Positions 17,306 through 43,074 of a stretch of DNA of 64,000 nucleotides are shown one piece after another; the stretch's first letter is position 1; each line of letters starts with the position of its first letter. This stretch comes from a virus: the IMG/VR virus record IMGVR_UViG_3300035150_000164, positions 1-64,000 of that record. One strand, given 5' to 3'. Under the pieces are notes generated by a model, which saw only the letters and a list, made by a program, of their open reading frames with translations, had not been told where the DNA came from and made no database searches. The position numbers were made by a program, and so were the translations under genes.

Positions 17306-17836
17306 CTATTTAGCCATAGATCTAACATCTGCCTTAGCAGTAGATGCACCAGCCACTCTCTGTCCTTTTCCTGACAACCAAAGTTTTACAACTGGTATCA
17401 CCTGTTCCATCAAGCCCGTCAAATCACCCTCTGACACCCCAAAACGCTTTAGCATAGCACCTACCCTTGGATTGTATAACATAGCTTCTATAAGCCTGTC
17501 TATAGCACCTTGTGATATACTCTCATCAAGTCCTTCTGACTTCTCAGATCTAACTTGTCTCTTATAATCCCCACCAGCACCCAAGACGTTCAACATTGAC
17601 ATCAAAAAATTCATAGGATTTCTCTTCATCTCATCTGTCAATGCATCAAATATCTTTTGCTCTCTACTTGCTACATCTCTACCTGATCCTTTTTGGGCAA
17701 GAGATCTAAGTTCCTTCACTGAACTTTCTATATGTCTTTGAAGTTTTCTATCTCCAAACTCTTTAGTCCTGTAACCTATCCCTCTTTTCTCCGTCAAATT
17801 CTCAATGCTCTCTATTAATCTTTTCATGTCTGTCAT
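17306..17836 (-). CDS. Putative capsid-internal protein
   Basis: N-terminal MKRLIESIENLTE; LxE sites. Confidence 0.5.
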   Translation of the reverse strand: MTDMKRLIESIENLTEKRGIGYRTKEFGDRKLQRHIESSVKELRSLAQKGSGRDVASREQKIFDALTDEMKRNPMNFLMSMLNVLGAGGDYKRQVRSEKSEGLDESISQGAIDRLIEAMLYNPRVGAMLKRFGVSEGDLTGLMEQVIPVVKLWLSGKGQRVAGASTAKADVRSMAK

Positions 17837-17845
17837 AACATCACC

Positions 17846-18364
17846 CTAAAACGCCTTGTTGAACAATATGTAATCGAATTTTGATAAATCACGCTGTGCT
17901 ATAGAATCAATATCTTTTGATAAATCCATCCTGTATTTCTCTAGATTTGAATTCAACGAACCATCAAGTTTCTGAAGTTCTCCAATTATTTCAAATTGCC
18001 TCTCTAGTTTTTTAGACCCAAGCATCTTTGCAGCCAACTGTAAAGCACCTGTATAATCATTATATTTAACCTTCTTCGCTATACGCTCCATTATAGATGG
18101 ATCTAAACTACTAGAAGACTCATCAATTTTTTCATCATCTTCTTTGTCATCCTCTGGAATATCCTCTCCCTCTATAATCATATTCAATTTGTTTATCAAA
18201 GAAATCCCACTAATAGTTTCGTCATCTTCTGTAGATACTTCCTCTACCTTAGAGGACGAAATCAAATTCGCATCGTCTTCCCCTACAACAGAAACATCAA
18301 CTTCATCATCATTATTTCCATAAATAATACGACGTATATCTTCTGCTAATCTTCGAATACTCAT
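17846..18364 (-). CDS. Putative capsid-internal protein
   Basis: MSIRRLAE N-terminus, acidic linker, IDE site. Confidence 0.5.
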   Translation of the reverse strand: MSIRRLAEDIRRIIYGNNDDEVDVSVVGEDDANLISSSKVEEVSTEDDETISGISLINKLNMIIEGEDIPEDDKEDDEKIDESSSSLDPSIMERIAKKVKYNDYTGALQLAAKMLGSKKLERQFEIIGELQKLDGSLNSNLEKYRMDLSKDIDSIAQRDLSKFDYILFNKAF

Positions 18365-19020: not shown

Positions 19021-19207
19021 GTAAATTACTAGGCTTACCGTTAAACGTCTCTGCGTTCAATACTTTCGTAGGTCCACTCCAACTCTCACCCTCTCCAAGC
19101 TTTTTATATACCCTACCACATACAGGACACAAAAACTCAACAACTTGTTTACAATCTTCAATACCCTCAGCCTTTAAAGCCATATCAGCTCTGCATTTAC
19201 AAATCAT
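19007..19207 (-). CDS. Small Cys-rich protein
   Basis: CKC...CPVC; ATGA overlap with upstream gene. Confidence 0.55.
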   Translation of the reverse strand: MICKCRADMALKAEGIEDCKQVVEFLCPVCGRVYKKLGEGESWSGPTKVLNAETFNGKPSNLLVEG

Positions 19208-19542
19208 ATTTCCTCTATCCTCGGTCTCAAAACCACCTTAGCCCCCCTTTTGGACTCTACCAATGAAACGAACTCAAGTTCGTTATGCTCCATAAATCTT
19301 TTCTCTACGTGATGCCCTACACTCATCGCATGACGTCCCTCCAGCAACATTACCAGCACTGTCCTTCCCCTGATAGATCTAACCTCAAACAAACACTTCG
19401 AAATCTCTCTTCCCTTTGTCGCTCGCTCACCCATCACCTTTAAAGCCCTAAACACAGATCTCTCTAATGGTGTAAGTATACGCTCTCTATTCTGAGGCGT
19501 ATCAGGAATGAATTTCTTTAATCTCTCTGATAATCTTTTCAT
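19204..19542 (-). CDS. Hypothetical protein
   Basis: ORF in packed cluster. Confidence 0.55.
   Translation of the reverse strand: MKRLSERLKKFIPDTPQNRERILTPLERSVFRALKVMGERATKGREISKCLFEVRSIRGRTVLVMLLEGRHAMSVGHHVEKRFMEHNELEFVSLVESKRGAKVVLRPRIEEI
19269..19282. repeat. Dispersed palindrome
   Basis: CGAACTCAAGTTCG, inside CDS. Confidence 0.85.
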
Positions 19543-22101: not shown

Positions 22102-22347
22102 TTATTCTCCTATCAAAGTTTCTACTTTTCTTACTATTACATCATGACCTATCCTACCAATAGACTCAGGATCTCCATCACTCATGGATACAAACATCTC
22201 ACAATCTCCACCTATACCAGCATACTTACTAAATTGTTTCAATGCACTTGCTAAAGCATTAGCATCATCAACCCTTGCCAAGTGAATTACAACTTTTACT
22301 GATTGATCATTCCTTATCTCATCAAGCCTTCTAATAAGATTCTTCAT
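22102..22347 (-). CDS. Putative capsid-internal protein
   Basis: MKNLIRRLDE N-terminus. Confidence 0.5.
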   Translation of the reverse strand: MKNLIRRLDEIRNDQSVKVVIHLARVDDANALASALKQFSKYAGIGGDCEMFVSMSDGDPESIGRIGHDVIVRKVETLIGE

Positions 22348-36039: not shown

Positions 36040-37650
36040 CTAAGAAGTAGTCACCGTAGGTAGACCACTACAAGTAATCACACCGTAATCCTCTGGTCGA
36101 AGCATCTTCTTCGCAAACCTAGTCCACATTCCCTTCGTGTGAGTAAAAGTATTCGGATCAAAGAAAGTTGGAGTCATCTGAAGCGGAACAAATGGACAAT
36201 ACGCGTATGCAGCGTCCAAAAAGCTGTTCCCTTTTCGTCCTACCAAAATCTTCGTCTCATCAATAAACGGATCAAGGTAAACAGCCCACTTCCTGCACAA
36301 CGTACCAACCCTAGTAATACCGTAATTAGAAGTCATAGGACCATAACTAGGTGGCACCACGTTCTGCTCAATGGTCGAAAAATCACCATGTGTCGATAAC
36401 TGATCTAACAGATTTGAAACACCAGGACCAACTACCACGAAGTTCGCTGGTGCTCTACGTCCAACCTTGTGAATACGACCAGATACTGAACCTATAATAG
36501 TAAGTAGCTCACGAATCGTCTCTAACTCACCTGGCGTAGTAGAAGCATACGTATAAGCAGCAGCATGCTGTGCTCCAGCAACTAGATCATCTATGATCTG
36601 CCTATCAATTTCTAACATTACCTCGTTAGCAAAATCAGCAACAAGTTCAGTCTCAGCATCCCTACCGTGTTGAGACCTCAAGTCTTCAACACTTGTCTGA
36701 GTCCACTGAGCTTTCAGTTTTGCCTCTTCTGCTATCACAGGAACACTAGTCAAATTCAAACTGATACTAGGAACACTAGCTCCACTGGTCTGAAACACCA
36801 ATTCCCAATTCACAAAATACTGGAAATAGATAACAGTATTATCTACAAACGTACTCGCAACACCAGTCTCGTCATAAGCAGTAATTGACCAGTTTCCGGT
36901 AGTAATATCAAAGGTACCTACAGTCGCCGGTGTCGCTTGATCATCCACCAAATTACCAGATGCATTCATAGTAGCAGTGATAGTAACCTCTCCTGTACCA
37001 GCATTATCCACAACACGATAGATAGCCCTCGTGAAGAAAGTCCGCTGACCAGAAGTTCCGTTGTCTCGAATTGGACTCCAGTCCGTCGTTCTACAATTCG
37101 TAGAAGCCTGGGTAAGTACCGTAGAGCTAGTACCTGTATCTGTACAAACCGAATCATAATCAACAAACTCACTACTGTAGTACTTACCAAAATTCTGCCG
37201 CATATTAGATCCAGCAGTAAGCTCTCCATCATAACTCATGTCAGTAGCGGTACCAGTAATACCATTAGGAGGAAGCATAGTCCCCTTGCGGTCATCGTAC
37301 ACACTCTCTTTGTAGAATACCAAACCTGAAGGACTCGTCATCGGCTGTACCGAAACAAGTTGGTTTGCAATCAGGTTCGGCCACACTCTACGAAGAATCG
37401 GAAATACATACTTGGTGAAATACCCAGTATTCGTGGACAAAGTATCTTCCTGAAGAGCCTTCAGGTGATCCATCTGATTTTCCATCAGAACAGCTGTCAC
37501 CTTCTTGATATACGGATACTTTATTGGATCCCTATCATGAGTCTCTTCCAAAAGATCTTTGTGCTTGTTAATACAATAGTTAGAGTAGTGAGCGTCATAC
37601 ACACTACCTCTCCCTGCCATTTCTAACAGTTGTCTGGCTTCGTCTGGCAT
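36040..37650 (-). CDS. Major capsid protein (T4 gp23-like)
   Basis: PILRRVWPNLIANQLVSVQPMTSPSGLVFY, KLKAQWT, DAETEL, EIDRQII, YCPFVPL, GMWTRFA. Confidence 0.95.
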   Translation of the reverse strand: MPDEARQLLEMAGRGSVYDAHYSNYCINKHKDLLEETHDRDPIKYPYIKKVTAVLMENQMDHLKALQEDTLSTNTGYFTKYVFPILRRVWPNLIANQLVSVQPMTSPSGLVFYKESVYDDRKGTMLPPNGITGTATDMSYDGELTAGSNMRQNFGKYYSSEFVDYDSVCTDTGTSSTVLTQASTNCRTTDWSPIRDNGTSGQRTFFTRAIYRVVDNAGTGEVTITATMNASGNLVDDQATPATVGTFDITTGNWSITAYDETGVASTFVDNTVIYFQYFVNWELVFQTSGASVPSISLNLTSVPVIAEEAKLKAQWTQTSVEDLRSQHGRDAETELVADFANEVMLEIDRQIIDDLVAGAQHAAAYTYASTTPGELETIRELLTIIGSVSGRIHKVGRRAPANFVVVGPGVSNLLDQLSTHGDFSTIEQNVVPPSYGPMTSNYGITRVGTLCRKWAVYLDPFIDETKILVGRKGNSFLDAAYAYCPFVPLQMTPTFFDPNTFTHTKGMWTRFAKKMLRPEDYGVITCSGLPTVTTS

Positions 37651-37675: not shown

Positions 37676-39337
37676 TTACCCAGGAATCCCAGCTAATCTA
37701 GCCTGATGAGAAATATCGTTTCCTAACTCGTCCTTCCTCTTATCTTTAGGCCTGTCTCGCTCTTCCTCCAATCGTACGCCATCACCTGTCTTTCCTTTAC
37801 CAAGTTTATTTCGCATACGCTGAAGAACTGGATCCCTTACTTCTGTTAACCCGTTCTTTCCAACTAACTCATCTACGCCAGCTCGGTCATGGACTGACTC
37901 CATAAGACCAATCAACTCTCTACCATTTGTTAAACCAACAACCTTATCACGCTTGTAGACTTCCAGTTCCGCATCCTCAACTAGTTTACGAGCATTCTCT
38001 GTGGCTTCATTCGCTTCAGACTTCGCTAATTCAGCCACTTCAATGGCTTCCTCAAGACTCTTCTCAAGCTCTGAAATCCTGTCGCTCATCTCGCTAGTAT
38101 CTTTGACGCGCTGATCGTCTATGCGTTGTCCCAACGTAACAGCTTTCCGCAACTTAACATTCAACTCTTCAACCTTACTTTCCAGCAGGGCTATATTACC
38201 TCGAAGCTCCACGTTTTCCTCGCGGGTCTTCGCCTCTTCCTTAGTTACTATTTCGTCTGCACTTGGCAATTCTGAAATAATCGTATTTAATGCATCCTCT
38301 ACATCTTTTATGTCGTCAAAATTCCTGTTCTTGAACGACTTCCGAATACTCTCTGCCATAGGATGCTTTGATATCTTACGCTCTATATATAACAAATGAG
38401 CTGCTCTCTTCGCAGCCTCAAGAGCCTCATCTCGCTCTCTGTTTGATTCAGATACAGAAAGTTCACTAGCCCTAATAGCATCCTTCACCGCTTGCTGATC
38501 GACATCACCCCTGTATGCACTCACCATCTCCGCTATAGCAGCCAATACACCCTTAGCACCACCAACTTCTGGGTCTTCCTCTAATTCTTCCCGAACCTCG
38601 CTAACAACCTCTTCTCGCATATCAGCAAGCACATCACGTAAATTACGCTCAAATTCCTCCGACATATCTCTACGAATATTATCGTATTCTTTGCTCTTGG
38701 TGCTTTTATTTTTCTTGGACTCCTCTAAAACATCAACAGACTCTGTCCCTTTTATCTCCTCAGCAATATCAGGACAGGCTTCCATCAAAACCTTTGCAAC
38801 AGAACGCATATCAATATCCTCTACATGTACCTCTGGTATCGCTGAACGCATCGCAGGATCAGACACAAAATCAAATGTCTTCAGAATAAAATCGTCTTGT
38901 ACCTCTTCACCCTCTTGAGACCCACGAGCAGGTGCCGTGCTTCCATAACCACGACTGGATACCCCAACCTTAACTTTTGCTTCTATCAGCTTCTTCAGTA
39001 TCTCTCCAGCAGGCGTAGGCAAAATTTCTGCCTCTCCAATCACAATACCATCTTTTATCTTCAGATCGGTAATCAAATGGCTCGCATGATATAGAGATGT
39101 TTTTCCATCGCTTGGATGTTCAATATGCCCCAGCATCCTAGATGTACGGTTGTCCATATCCTCACGAAGCCGCTTAATCTCCCTAGCCATTAACTCTTCG
39201 CGATAAATACGACCGTTCTGTGTCGGTACCCCAACACGTCCAAATTCACCACGTGCTATTACCTTATTCCCAGTATTGCTTTCTACCAATGAAAGCTCAG
39301 ACATAAGCGATTCAGTTAATTCCTGGATCTTATTCAT
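37676..39337 (-). CDS. Prohead protease (gp21-like) fused to scaffold
   Basis: NGRIY, GHIEHP, GVSSRGYGS, FDFVSDP, then long Glu-rich coiled coil; likely start MNKIQEL at 39337. Confidence 0.9.
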   Translation of the reverse strand: MNKIQELTESLMSELSLVESNTGNKVIARGEFGRVGVPTQNGRIYREELMAREIKRLREDMDNRTSRMLGHIEHPSDGKTSLYHASHLITDLKIKDGIVIGEAEILPTPAGEILKKLIEAKVKVGVSSRGYGSTAPARGSQEGEEVQDDFILKTFDFVSDPAMRSAIPEVHVEDIDMRSVAKVLMEACPDIAEEIKGTESVDVLEESKKNKSTKSKEYDNIRRDMSEEFERNLRDVLADMREEVVSEVREELEEDPEVGGAKGVLAAIAEMVSAYRGDVDQQAVKDAIRASELSVSESNRERDEALEAAKRAAHLLYIERKISKHPMAESIRKSFKNRNFDDIKDVEDALNTIISELPSADEIVTKEEAKTREENVELRGNIALLESKVEELNVKLRKAVTLGQRIDDQRVKDTSEMSDRISELEKSLEEAIEVAELAKSEANEATENARKLVEDAELEVYKRDKVVGLTNGRELIGLMESVHDRAGVDELVGKNGLTEVRDPVLQRMRNKLGKGKTGDGVRLEEERDRPKDKRKDELGNDISHQARLAGIPG

Positions 39338-39338
39338 C

Positions 39339-39575
39339 TTATCCCCATTTTCTCCACTTTTTGAACCTATATGGTGTTCTTGCAAGTGGATTGCGGTCGA
39401 GCTTTCGCTTGGCTTCTGGAGAGATCTTTCGCTTTGTCTTTTTTCCATCCAACCTAATACTTTTGAGTTGCGAGACAAAACCTATTAACTCCAATCTCCC
39501 CGATGTATACGCCGTTCTTCGTTTCCGCTTACCACCACTCGATTTCTTCTCTGATAAGCGGTCTATTCGTTTCCC
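39339..39575 (-). CDS. -1 frameshift extension of prohead core protein (basic ~78 aa)
   Basis: Met-less open frame from GGGAAAC (39569-39575) to TAA at 39339-39341, one base before the protease ATG. Confidence 0.7.
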   Translation of the reverse strand, partial: GKRIDRLSEKKSSGGKRKRRTAYTSGRLELIGFVSQLKSIRLDGKKTKRKISPEAKRKLDRNPLARTPYRFKKWRKWG

Positions 39576-40504
39576 AAATCTTCCGTCTTCTCAAGATTCT
39601 CAAGACTCTTTGTTATCAATGAAGTGATCGGCTCTAACTCTGCAATAAATTCACTCCCATCCATAACATCTTCATCCAAACGTCCTACATCATATGCATC
39701 CAGCATATTTTCAACAGCATCCTCGTATATCTGGGTAACTACCTGATCTACAAATTCCTCATTCAGCAATTCAACTATATTAACACAATGCTCTACAATA
39801 TCATCCCTAACACTAACATTATCATTACCATGTACACCCTCTGCTACCTGCATAAGATCCTGTGCAAATGGAGAAATCAAATCTTCACGGCGCATAGCTC
39901 CTCTACGCTTCTCAGCACGGAAACTACGCATCTTACTCATAGTCCCCTTTCCACCACGACTCCATTTTTTCTTCTTCCTGCTCTCCTTACGTAGTTTACC
40001 CATCCCACCAGATACAATATGAGCTGGCCTACACTGGGGACGCCCTCCGCCACTACCTACAGATACCGCACGCTGTCCCTTTGGACACTGAAAACTCATC
40101 TTCCTAGCAGTAGACTTTGCCTTAAATCTACGCTGCCTAGTCGCTGCACCCTCTTTCAAAAGCACCACAACTCGCTCAGCATGCTCTCTTAACTCATCAT
40201 CCCCATCAGGCAATTTCTTTTCTGAAAGCTCGTTCAAAAGCTCCTCAAAATCAGACTCTTCCATCGCATCAAAAGGCAAAGCCTCTATACGATCAAAAAG
40301 TTCTTTCGTAACATAAAGTCCATCAATAGGATCATCAGAATCCTCATCAACTTTCTGCTCTTCTTGCTGCTCTTCTTGCTCTGGCTCTGGCTCTGGCTCA
40401 TCTAATTCACCACTAGGTGTTGCTCTAATGTTACCAATAATAACATTAGAACTAATACCCAGTTGTTCCAAATCTTCCTGTAATGTTGTTTTAAAACGAC
40501 CCAT
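39563..40504 (-). CDS. Prohead core-like protein
   Basis: Acidic and highly basic blocks separated by LxE sites; between portal and protease like T4 gp67/68. Confidence 0.6.
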   Translation of the reverse strand: MGRFKTTLQEDLEQLGISSNVIIGNIRATPSGELDEPEPEPEQEEQQEEQKVDEDSDDPIDGLYVTKELFDRIEALPFDAMEESDFEELLNELSEKKLPDGDDELREHAERVVVLLKEGAATRQRRFKAKSTARKMSFQCPKGQRAVSVGSGGGRPQCRPAHIVSGGMGKLRKESRKKKKWSRGGKGTMSKMRSFRAEKRRGAMRREDLISPFAQDLMQVAEGVHGNDNVSVRDDIVEHCVNIVELLNEEFVDQVVTQIYEDAVENMLDAYDVGRLDEDVMDGSEFIAELEPITSLITKSLENLEKTEDLGNE

Positions 40505-40509
40505 GTTAA

Positions 40510-41379
40510 TTACTCCTTGTCGTTAGATTGTGCCTTCATACCAATATATTCAGACACAAGCGCCATTGTCCTAGCTCGGTCGGCCAACCTATCATGTGCC
40601 TTCGCTACTAATGGCAAATCACCGTCTTGCCCTGACAACTTATCGGCCTTACCAAGCAGACCAACTATAGCCTGCGACTCAGCAATCAACGATTCACGTA
40701 CGGCACTTAAAAACTCTTGTTTCTCACTAAATGAAAGACCCTGGCATTTTGTTATGAATCCAGAGTATAACTCATTAATAATATTGATAGAATCATATAT
40801 TTCCTTCTTGAATTCTAATAACCTGTTCTCCGCTAATCTCGAATAATGCGTCTTAGGAACTTGACCTTCTATATCTCTAATACGACCATGTAAACTAGTC
40901 CTAATCCGCTCAATATTCGCATCATACATCTTGTACCATTCGGAATCTTCACCTGTAGCCTCATTAATAGATGATACAATATCAGACATCCAATACATCT
41001 CATCCTTACGTACAAAGGGAATCAACTCACGAACTTGAGTTCGTATAGCTTCCGTTATACCATTTCCATTCATAAGCAGATTGGTAATTTTCATCAATTC
41101 ACCAGCTACATGAAAAGGTATGTTGTCATCCTCAATTACCGGTATCGCCTTAGATGCATTGTTGCTCTTTATCTCAAGAACTCCGTCTTCATTAATGTAG
41201 TACGATATTTTCCTGAGACCTTTATCCTTATCAAAAGCCAAAACATAATCTTCAAACGTTGCAACTATATTCAACGGACTATCATATTTAAATTGTACTA
41301 GGTGCTTCACCGTATCAAGACGCTTCTCAATGCTATTTTTTTTCGCTTTTTCAATTGCTGAACCTTGAATAAATGGCAT
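40510..41379 (-). CDS. Head morphogenesis hypothetical protein
   Basis: Directly downstream of portal. Confidence 0.65.
   Translation of the reverse strand: MPFIQGSAIEKAKKNSIEKRLDTVKHLVQFKYDSPLNIVATFEDYVLAFDKDKGLRKISYYINEDGVLEIKSNNASKAIPVIEDDNIPFHVAGELMKITNLLMNGNGITEAIRTQVRELIPFVRKDEMYWMSDIVSSINEATGEDSEWYKMYDANIERIRTSLHGRIRDIEGQVPKTHYSRLAENRLLEFKKEIYDSINIINELYSGFITKCQGLSFSEKQEFLSAVRESLIAESQAIVGLLGKADKLSGQDGDLPLVAKAHDRLADRARTMALVSEYIGMKAQSNDKE
41030..41043. repeat. Dispersed palindrome
   Basis: CGAACTTGAGTTCG, inside CDS. Confidence 0.85.
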
Positions 41380-43074
41380 TTACTTAACTCCCGATACTCG
41401 CCTTCTGTCAATTCTCCTAATAGCCTTACTCACTTTCGGATCAATCTCCTCTACTTTTTTTAACATCCTACTGGATGTTTGTATAGTTTCCTGAACCGAC
41501 TCTTTAATTTTATCAAGTTTTTCCAATACGTCAACATCTTCTGTCTTATTATTATCATCTTGATTCGGAATTCTTACAGACCTTGTGCCAGATCTGCCAT
41601 CCTGCCACCTCGGAATTTCTACACCAGGATACTTACGCTGTATCATCGCCATAACCCTAGCATCATCGTTCATTTTCTTCTCATTTTCACTACTCTTATC
41701 ATTAACTACTACAACAGCATCATCTTGGCTCATGTGAAGAACATTCTGTAACAACCATTCTTCTGAGAAATACTGACTTAACGTTTCTATCAATCCGGCC
41801 TGTGCATTCATTACCTCTATCTGCTGAAGCTCAAAAATGCTACTAGGAACTGTCATCCTCATCTCCCATTCAACAGTATCCGGATCTATATCCAAAGCCG
41901 CTAGGTGAACCCTTATAATCTGCCTCATTCCGTTTTTGAACTCTCTCTGTACACGCATGCAAGTTCTTGCAAATCTAACATCCTTCTGAGCAAGCCCCTG
42001 TTCTGCCTCTGCATCCCCTCCGTAATAACTTCTAGGTATCTTCAGGGCTGTAAACATTTTTTCTCTGAAATATTCTATAGAATCGTTTGACTGCCAATCA
42101 GGACCAGATAATACTTCTACCCTGCTAGATTCCTTCCCTCCCCTTGTGGCAACCCATACATCATCTTCTGGTGACAAAGCGTTGTGTCTAAAATCTATCT
42201 CCCCAGTAGACGGATTAACAAGCGTTCTTTTCTTATATTGTCTACGTGCCTTTTTTAATACAGCATTAGCCTCTGCTGGTGGTAAATCGCCAGTATCAAC
42301 ATAAAATATGTACCTTCCAGGAGATCTGCTAAGCATATATATTAATGATGTATCCTCCAACATCACCAAGCGTTTCCAAATCCAACGCGCAGCCTCCATT
42401 GTAGACCACCCATATAACGATTGAATAAACTTAGATCTCAACCTCCAGTGAACAATCTCCCAGGGCTCAAAAAATATCATCCCCCGCTCTTCAGCTTTTT
42501 TCTTTATAGATTCAACTGTCTCGTCATCCTTTATACTGATACCGAATCTTCCTGACATATCCTGAAGATATCCAATTAACCCACCCTTAGCATCTACCAA
42601 CCTTCTAACCGTTGGCACTGGCAAAAAATTAAGACCTACCACTCCCCTTTCTGTAACAACTATTTCTGCATATAAATTTCCATACTTACAAAGCGCCCTT
42701 ACCGCAATCCAAATATCATCCTCTATCCTAAGCCTTCGGTGTAGACAATCATTAATTATGTTTCGAAGTAAATTATCCTTAGACTCTGCCCATATACTCT
42801 TCCCCCTAACACTATCTGGTATAGTACTGTCATCAGCCATTATATCCAAACTCGCACTGAGTTCAGGGTAATCATCCATATCCTCGTAATCACTATATCT
42901 TTGTAACAACGCATGATCTATAGAAATAGACTCAGATATGGACTTCATCATGCCACCAGGTGCAAACGCCTCACTAGAAGTAGGATCATCTACCGTCTTA
43001 CCACGTCCACCTTCAGCAGCCTGATACGCCTTATCCCTCTTGAATAATCTAGCTATTGACTCTTTAAATCCCAT
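41380..43074 (-). CDS. Portal protein (T4 gp20-like)
   Basis: YEDMDDYPEL, LEDTSLIYMLSRSPGRYIFYVDTGDLP, EDDVW, IEYFREKMFTALKIP, KDVRFAR. Confidence 0.93.
   Translation of the reverse strand: MGFKESIARLFKRDKAYQAAEGGRGKTVDDPTSSEAFAPGGMMKSISESISIDHALLQRYSDYEDMDDYPELSASLDIMADDSTIPDSVRGKSIWAESKDNLLRNIINDCLHRRLRIEDDIWIAVRALCKYGNLYAEIVVTERGVVGLNFLPVPTVRRLVDAKGGLIGYLQDMSGRFGISIKDDETVESIKKKAEERGMIFFEPWEIVHWRLRSKFIQSLYGWSTMEAARWIWKRLVMLEDTSLIYMLSRSPGRYIFYVDTGDLPPAEANAVLKKARRQYKKRTLVNPSTGEIDFRHNALSPEDDVWVATRGGKESSRVEVLSGPDWQSNDSIEYFREKMFTALKIPRSYYGGDAEAEQGLAQKDVRFARTCMRVQREFKNGMRQIIRVHLAALDIDPDTVEWEMRMTVPSSIFELQQIEVMNAQAGLIETLSQYFSEEWLLQNVLHMSQDDAVVVVNDKSSENEKKMNDDARVMAMIQRKYPGVEIPRWQDGRSGTRSVRIPNQDDNNKTEDVDVLEKLDKIKESVQETIQTSSRMLKKVEEIDPKVSKAIRRIDRRRVSGVK

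Follow-up and report, generated by a model that had tools for sequence, protein, structure and literature searches.

Programmed -1 ribosomal frameshifting in phage structural genes is known from tail chaperones, capsid proteins and tail proteins (PMC5009743). Here, we analysed a putative frameshift site in the head module of a virus represented by IMG/VR record IMGVR_UViG_3300035150_000164 (positions 1 to 64,000; this whole 64,000-nucleotide (nt) stretch of DNA is called the window). The site is located at the 3' end of a gene encoding an acidic 313-amino acid (aa) protein, and the features discussed are on the minus strand (Table 1). Judging from the comparison with homologous loci, the probability that the window carries a genuine, conserved and canonical programmed -1 ribosomal frameshift site was estimated at roughly 85%. 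Most ribosomes would stop at the TAG at 39563 and produce the 313-aa protein, and a fraction would slip back by one base at the heptamer G_GGA_AAC, held up by a stem-loop 7 nt downstream, and read 76 more codons to produce a protein of approximately 388 aa with an extremely basic tail.

The tail assembly chaperone frameshift (lambda G/GT and its counterparts; PMC5009743) resembles the window in several respects. In both, the -1 shift occurs at an X_XXY_YYZ sequence near the 3' end of a structural-module gene, a short and a C-terminally extended product are obtained from one start, and the layout is kept across very diverged phages despite drift in their sequences. G_GGA_AAC and A_AAA_AAC, the latter found in one of the homologous loci, are established shift sites that haloarchaeal tailed viruses employ in g-t frameshifting (PMC5009743). 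However, the window site belongs to the head module, with the portal on one side and the prohead protease on the other, and does not precede a tape-measure gene; its extension is short, very basic and predicted to be disordered, unlike the folded T domain. No match of the window gene to tail-chaperone families was detected in Pfam or PHROG.

In the frameshifts of head proteins (T7/T3 10A/10B, the major head protein of Lactobacillus phage A2, and Listeria phages A118, A500 and PSA; PMC5009743), the shift is likewise near the end of a head gene, and a minor longer isoform is built into the head alongside the major form. These cases extend the major capsid protein, often by an outward immunoglobulin (Ig)-like domain, whereas the gene extended in the window encodes a non-capsid acidic assembly protein and the extension looks protease-releasable and internal. 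The third related system is that of the T4 internal proteins processed by the gp21 protease (IPI-III, Alt) and the T4 core proteins gp67 and gp68 (PMC9026906). In T4, the cleavage sites of gp21 (the type S77 protease) follow L/I-x-E, and internal proteins reach the core by means of N-terminal capsid-targeting sequences of 10 residues (PMC9026906). In the window, the T4-type portal, the S77 protease and the gp23-type capsid genes follow the gene order of T4, an L-x-E motif comes directly past the shift, and a putative basic cargo is joined to an acidic carrier that is rich in L/I-x-E motifs, like core proteins that get chopped up. By contrast, no sequence similarity to any T4 protein was detected in this comparison, and the window cargo has no N-terminal leader of its own, being joined by frameshift to the C-terminus of its carrier; packaging and cleavage as in T4 would be an analogy.

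The 313-codon open reading frame (ORF; 40504..39563, minus strand) ends in GAT TTG GGA AAC GAA TAG. The heptamer is followed by a 7-nt spacer (39568-39562) and by a stem in which the 5' arm CCGCTTATCA (39561-39552) pairs with the 3' arm TGGTAAGCGG (39534-39525), giving 10 base pairs (bp), one of them G-U, and a 17-nt loop (39551-39535). This stem is contained in the minimum-free-energy fold (z = -1.4, 101 nt). The sequence-only reading of this DNA had given the ORF end, the heptamer, the spacer, the stem, the 78-codon -1 frame and the position of its TAA, and all of these were exact on re-reading. Its G-K-R junction had to be replaced: under the usual two-tRNA slippage, the junction is ...D-L-G-N-R-I-D-R-L-S-E and the total length is 388 aa. 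The tail contains 28 lysines plus arginines and 6 aspartates plus glutamates (isoelectric point, pI, 11.7); the segment after R-L-S-E has 69 residues (8.1 kDa, 25 basic vs. 4 acidic residues) and is predicted to be largely disordered (AF2 model of the tail, pLDDT 62.6, mostly coil). An upstream Shine-Dalgarno-like stimulator, as in dnaX, was absent in the window (43rd percentile), and relatives were weakly and inconsistently enriched in such sequences (median 17th percentile). The Rfam search of 39250-39700 gave only a sub-threshold RAGATH-9 match (23.7 bits vs. a gathering score of 75.2), which was taken as chance.

A search of 5.8 billion proteins revealed 42 homologs of the 313-aa protein, all of them metagenomic and with 'hypothetical protein' as the sole name given. 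Nearly all have C-termini of the form x-G-N, or x-G-N plus one residue (D, E, G or A). Loci were fetched for the homologs, 29 from viral contigs and 18 from metagenome contigs. The gene ended in xxG GGA AAC, followed by 0 or 1 codon and the stop, in 21 of 22 distinct homologous loci (34-60% protein identity), so that in the close family the zero-frame stop is 0 or 3 nt past the heptamer. The exception (locus L020) ended in TTA AAA AAC TAA, which contains another classical heptamer, A_AAA_AAC. Taken over all of the roughly 25 distinct homologous loci, a slippery heptamer in phase was always present, and in most it was GGGAAAC. The residue preceding the glycine varied (Leu, Ser, Arg, Met or Pro, with codons such as TTG, CTG, TCG, CGG and ATG) and the third base of its codon was always G. 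In the same ORFs, GGA accounted for 18% of the Gly codons, AAC for 52% of the Asn codons and G for 34% of the third positions; in-phase heptamers were present elsewhere at 23 of 7481 codon positions (0.3%), and the heptamer was expected from codon usage in about 3% per lineage. Against this background, the nucleotides are conserved, and not merely a Gly-Asn C-terminus. A chance origin of the heptamer is excluded by this comparison among homologs, not by the window sequence alone. More distant loci had in-phase G_GGA_AAA, G_GGA_AAU, A_AAA_AAA, A_AAC_CCU and others. The 39 distinct heptamer-bearing loci comprised 30 with GGGAAAC, 4 with GGGAAAA, and one each with AAAAAAA, AAAAAAC, AAACCCT, TTTTTTT and CCCTTTC; the heptamer of locus L055 is GGGAAAT.

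In all complete loci, the open stretch of the -1 frame measured 179-239 nt. It often starts just 10-25 nt before the zero-frame stop, leaving the heptamer as the only plausible entry point. The tails were 53-83% identical to that of the window, compared to 34-60% for the upstream proteins of the same loci. Substitutions in the tail ORF at codon positions 1, 2 and 3 numbered 3126, 2203 and 5207 respectively, the median ratio of non-synonymous to synonymous substitution rates (dN/dS) was 0.14, and R19, S25, G26, R27 and E29 were invariant across 51 aligned tails. A profile of 20 tails was searched against 1.84 billion representative proteins and gave 20 matches; 18 of these were short called ORFs (43-92 aa), either genuine small genes or fragments produced by gene callers. 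No in-frame fusion of the tail to a relative of the 313-aa protein was found among these representative proteins, indicating that the frame break is maintained and not accidental. The tail had no Pfam or PHROG match, a PDB profile search with the 51 tails gave none, and the ESM Atlas gave no usable match.

These data bear on the possibility that there is no recoding at all, and that the arrangement stems from a mistake in sequencing or assembly, from a pseudogene, or from a frame that is open by chance in a non-coding spacer. A single metagenome-derived contig cannot alone exclude a 1-nt error. However, dozens of independent contigs drawn from various samples shared this arrangement, the heptamer was free of indels in related-strain contigs of other wetland metagenomes, and the substitutions in the -1 frame were codon-position-specific (by a hand count, 17 of the 23 listed strain differences between 39411 and 39504 are in third positions of this frame). 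Together with the lack of a fused version in the representative proteins, this leaves the explanation by error or chance with practically no probability. The window comes from a wetland metagenome; close and approximately 80%-identical strains occur in other wetland runs, and in a diverged strain 39377-39536, inside the tail ORF, is among the few pieces of 39200-40600 that still align at the DNA level. Among RNA runs, none was listed as containing the stretch.

The stem-loop was compared in 10 members of the window's clade; the helices were read from single-sequence folds, and MAFFT alignment A8 misplaced the 3' arm of locus L111. All 10 members had the 7-nt spacer and the same helix (up to 10 bp), with loops of 5-41 nt. 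Compensatory double changes were observed at helix position 1 (C-G to G-C, L114) and position 7 (A-U to G-C, L111 and L113), and L111 had further ones at position 9 (C-G to U-A) and position 10 (A-U to G-C). At the corresponding position, loci of the sister clade form another, stronger stem-loop (21 bp, -28 to -36 kcal/mol), in which five pairs are compensatory. Over the 39 distinct heptamer-bearing loci, the stability of the 55 nt past the site was at the median 8th percentile of windows from the same locus, and 14 of the 39 were at or below 5%. One sub-lineage of the clade, formed by L111 (1329-1402) and L118 (approximately 1338-1560), has K-R-K-R-R-T-A-Y replaced by [IV]-R-K-L-A-T-T before S-G-R, and in the same sub-lineage four stem base pairs are changed, three of them via compensatory double changes. 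These simultaneous changes indicate that peptide and RNA structure co-evolved.

Viral contigs were also scanned for [TS]AY.SGR.E, giving 76 more loci with 54 distinct leader sequences. The family consensus of the peptide is R-R-T-A-Y-x-S-G-R-x-E ... W-R, and in nearly all of these loci (with two exceptions among those listed) an S77 protease gene was detected immediately after the peptide. The -1 arrangement, with a heptamer in phase, is present in about two thirds. In about a third of approximately 70 further distinct loci, a small gene of its own encodes the peptide; it starts at an ATG or GTG that in many cases overlaps the preceding stop codon (GTGA, ATGA). These stand-alone genes start with a leader of 11-20 residues, most ending in hydrophobic-x-Glu, and in having such a short leader before the putative cargo they resemble T4 proteins with capsid-targeting sequences. 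Examples are [M/V]-x-W-V-P-L-E-W-L-F-E (e.g. M-S-W-V-P-L-E-W-L-F-E) followed by A-P-R-K-R-R-T-A-Y, M-S-L-I-P-L-S-L-L-L-G-E-G followed by A-R-K-R-R, and M-L-I-R-L-S-D-L-I-E-G followed by K-R-R-R. One locus (L030) combines entry at GGGAAAC with a leader-like segment. In a quick protease tree, the frameshift mode was present on both sides of the midpoint root and the stand-alone mode was concentrated in one well-supported clade; in this tree, well-supported branches force at least three changes between the two modes. A protein of the representative library (P0059, 202 aa) has the leader W-M-P-A-H-E-V-V-E twice, once at the N-terminus before a domain of approximately 120 residues and once before an R-K-R-R-T-A-Y tail, and resembles a polyprotein of two cargoes in which the cut sites recur.

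Stand-alone genes of this kind suggest another origin for the tail, namely that the -1 ORF of the window is a small gene in its own right, and that it is translated without frameshifting, either from a non-AUG or internal start (e.g. TTG 39494) or by re-initiation once ribosomes have terminated at the nearby zero-frame stop. Sister lineages do express the same peptide from their own ATG or GTG, a zero-frame stop 0-3 nt past the heptamer in the close family would also suit termination-reinitiation, and gene callers called the 43-92-aa fragments from internal starts. However, there is no conserved start codon: start-type codons occur at varying codon positions (3 to 64), which are non-homologous and differ between clades, and in the window's clade there is no ATG, GTG or TTG upstream of R-R-T-A-Y-x-S-G-R, every start-type codon being downstream of this motif. 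The -1 ORF of the window has no ATG; its first start-type codon, TTG 39494 with GGAG just 1 nt upstream, lies past the most conserved stretch of the peptide, and a start there would remove R19-R27 and with them invariant residues. Moreover, an independent gene leaves unexplained the fixed synonymous xxG GGA AAC, its replacement by other X_XXY_YYZ heptamers, and the covarying hairpin 7 nt downstream. We consider such a gene highly unlikely. The sequence-only reading had named translation from an internal TTG as evidence against its proposal, and this fails here, as the most conserved residues are upstream of a TTG that is not conserved. Its two comparative checks, conservation of GGGAAAC and of the -1 frame in homologs, both gave a positive result, and its central proposal, that a programmed -1 frameshift adds a basic tail, receives strong comparative support from the heptamers (canonical alternatives included), the covarying stem, the purifying selection on the -1 frame, and the lack of a conserved start codon and of in-frame fused forms.

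The zero-frame protein is acidic (pI 4.7), has 12 [LI]xE motifs and ends in ...E-D-L-G-N-E-stop. It had no Pfam match and one marginal PHROG match of unknown function (E 0.0043); its AF2 model is helical (pLDDT 66), and a Foldseek search of BFVD with this fold gave no match (all E > 0.08). Similarity to gp67 or gp68 was not detected in Pfam, PHROG or the BFVD fold search, gene position alone being analogous, with the portal-side genes before it and the protease and capsid genes after it. Thus, the label 'prohead core protein' given by the sequence-only reading is putative and drawn from gene position, and the Pfam, PHROG and fold searches did not add to it. Residues 140-163 contain an invariant C140 and a nearly invariant C158 in the pattern F-Q-C-P-x-G-x-R-A ... 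R-P-x-C-x-P-[SA]-H. In the model, both cysteines are on a small predicted beta-hairpin beside the very basic stretch K-K-K-K-W-S-R-G-G-K-G, and this region may be a metal- or nucleic-acid-binding knuckle within an otherwise acidic helical protein.

The most likely model for the tail, by analogy with T4, is that of a protease-releasable, head-internal cargo peptide tethered to an acidic head protein. The long isoform would co-assemble with the short one in the prohead, and the tail would enter through its covalent link to the core- or scaffold-like assembly protein. The neighbouring S77 protease would then cut after R-L-S-E and leave a peptide of approximately 69 residues with a charge of +21 within the capsid, where it would stay with the DNA or on the inner capsid surface, probably binding one of them. 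This reading is favoured mainly by the sister phages, in which a separate gene with a leader occupies this position and encodes the same peptide; the frameshift fusion and the leader look like two interchangeable loading routes for one peptide. The head module of the frameshift gene also encodes an S77 prohead protease, and an L/I-x-E motif separates the putative targeting part from the putative cargo (motif presence was what was scored). A hydrophobic-x-E ([LIVMF]xE within 16 residues before the basic motif) was found in 34 of the 46 tails scored by the motif filter (51 aligned). Release by the protease, as proposed by the sequence-only reading, is therefore consistent with the protease gene downstream, the hydrophobic-x-Glu before the basic motif and the stand-alone leaders, and the cleavage itself stays putative. 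The complex prediction of the tail (A6) with the protease domain (A7) scored 0.00, which is evidence neither way.

Four other small or mid-sized window proteins (17306-17836, 17846-18364, 19204-19542 and 22102-22347, minus strand) have leaders rich in [KR], with [RK]-L-x-E within the first 16 residues: M-T-D-M-K-R-L-I-E-S-I-E-N-L-T-E, M-S-I-R-R-L-A-E, M-K-R-L-S-E and M-K-N-L-I-R-R-L-D-E. These resemble the post-shift segment K-R-I-D-R-L-S-E and are candidate capsid-targeting leaders.

The ATG of the protease is at 39337, and a single base (39338) separates it from the TAA of the tail. Consequently, frameshifted ribosomes may also feed protease translation. This could be the main role of a real frameshift, its rate setting the translation of the protease-scaffold gene and the tail peptide being secondary. 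The tail stop is at most about 20 nt from the protease start in all complete loci but one, and a few nt in most; the likely Shine-Dalgarno sequence of the protease (GGGGA) is within the last tail codons, and ribosomes that remain in the zero frame terminate 225 nt upstream of the protease. A mere ribosome conveyor, however, would not need the strong purifying selection along the whole peptide or its invariant residues, and the stand-alone versions retain the peptide. A mainly regulatory frameshift is very unlikely, although the regulatory and cargo roles are not mutually exclusive.

Several points weigh against frameshifting in the window or against the cargo model. The frameshift was deduced from comparison, in a phage that is uncultured. 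The stem-loop of the window (-14 kcal/mol) is at the 10th percentile among 55-nt windows of its own locus, a moderate stability only; since this hairpin alone is unremarkable, the case for frameshifting must rest on comparison. A few related loci (L092, L095 and L098) have no marked downstream structure, the stimulator not being universal in distant loci, and a few others (L049, L070 and L073) have the -1 arrangement without a full heptamer, L049 and L070 sharing only the tetramer C_CCU. The arms of the stem encode R-L-S and G-G-K-R, and therefore part of the local peptide conservation could reflect constraint on the RNA and not a cleavage site. The head-core identity of the 313-aa protein is drawn solely from gene order. 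Finally, the A-site hierarchy in E. coli is A_AAG > U_UUY > C_CCY > A_AAA, and A_AAC is among the weak motifs (PMC4066793), so that the efficiency may be low or dependent on the host. The same weakness is the sole basis on which the long form, termed a minority isoform in the sequence-only reading, is probably the minor product.

Table 1. Positions of the features of the frameshift locus and its neighbours in the window.
Feature	Position	Strand	Basis
Portal	41380-43074	minus	Portal_T4
Zero-frame gene, acidic 313-aa protein (313 codons)	39563..40504	minus	ORF list; 42 homologs
Slippery heptamer G_GGA_AAC, in X_XXY_YYZ phase of the zero frame	39569..39575	minus	sequence; conserved in homologs
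Zero-frame stop TAG, one codon past the heptamer	39563..39565	minus	sequence
Stem-loop, probable frameshift stimulator	39525..39561	minus	minimum-free-energy fold; covariation in clade
-1 frame ORF, 78 codons from the heptamer, then TAA (39341-39339); basic tail	39339..39575	minus	sequence, alignments
R-L-S-E, candidate L/I-x-E prohead-protease cleavage site just past the shift	39549..39560	minus	sequence; cleavage putative
Most conserved tail motif, R-R-T-A-Y-T-S-G-R-L-E (tail residues 19-29)	39489..39521	minus	alignments A4, A6
Prohead protease, Peptidase_S77 (T4 gp21 type), fused to a long C-terminal region	37676..39337	minus	Pfam, PHROG
gp23-type capsid protein	36040-37650	minus	Pfam

The order of the genes on the minus strand is portal, a 289-aa ORF, the 313-aa ORF, a gap of 225 nt, protease and capsid (ORF list, PHROG and Pfam). 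The protease gene matched PF03420 (E 1.8e-11) and phrog_207 (E 2.8e-41), and its best matches in GenBank phages were the proteases of T4-like cyanophages (36-40% identity). The frame of the protease remains open upstream of its ATG as far as TTG 39478, and the ORF list therefore contains a 600-aa 'protease' overlapping the tail ORF (39339-39478, minus strand). This 47-residue upstream extension is very probably spurious, because relatives start at an ATG after the tail stop (M..LLIE / M..KLTE) and the substitutions follow the tail frame. The N-termini of the proteases of the window and its homologs (alignment A7) all have L-x-L-x-E approximately 15-20 residues from the start, and the window protease has S-L-V-E followed by S-N-T-G-N-K-V-I-A-R-G-E-F-G; the L-x-L-x-E may be where the protease cleaves off its own propeptide, as T4 gp21 does. 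In the capsid protein, A-L-Q-E is a few residues ahead of the region matching the Gp23 family.

No match was found in GenBank phages (50,697 records) by blastn of the region or by tblastn with the tail, the 313-aa protein and the stand-alone tail. We found no description of a frameshift in a prohead core, scaffold or protease context in the literature searched, most subscription journals being outside this search. The slipping mechanism is canonical, and the interest consequently lies in its use and not in the decoding. New here are the leader-bearing stand-alone form of the peptide, the variety of heptamers in use, the covariation within the stem of the window itself, and the almost constant association with an S77 protease gene. 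A wider proposal, which we put forward tentatively and towards which we are more sceptical than confident, is that the R-R-T-A-Y-x-S-G-R-x-E peptide would be an unrecognised and near-universal head-internal polycation that condenses or accompanies DNA in a large uncultured lineage with T4-type head genes, and that frameshifting would be a fixed-ratio capsid-loading device, swapped at least three times with the leader route.

If the frameshift reading is true, the locus would be a case of structural-gene frameshifting outside the classic tail-chaperone and capsid-decoration examples. Gene callers would then be missing the long isoform, or mis-calling fragments of it, in the dozens of uncultured phage genomes found here. 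The two arrangements, frameshift fusion and cleavable leader, would also be a natural experiment on how T4-type heads select and dose their internal contents, and the system might serve to load cargo into capsids.

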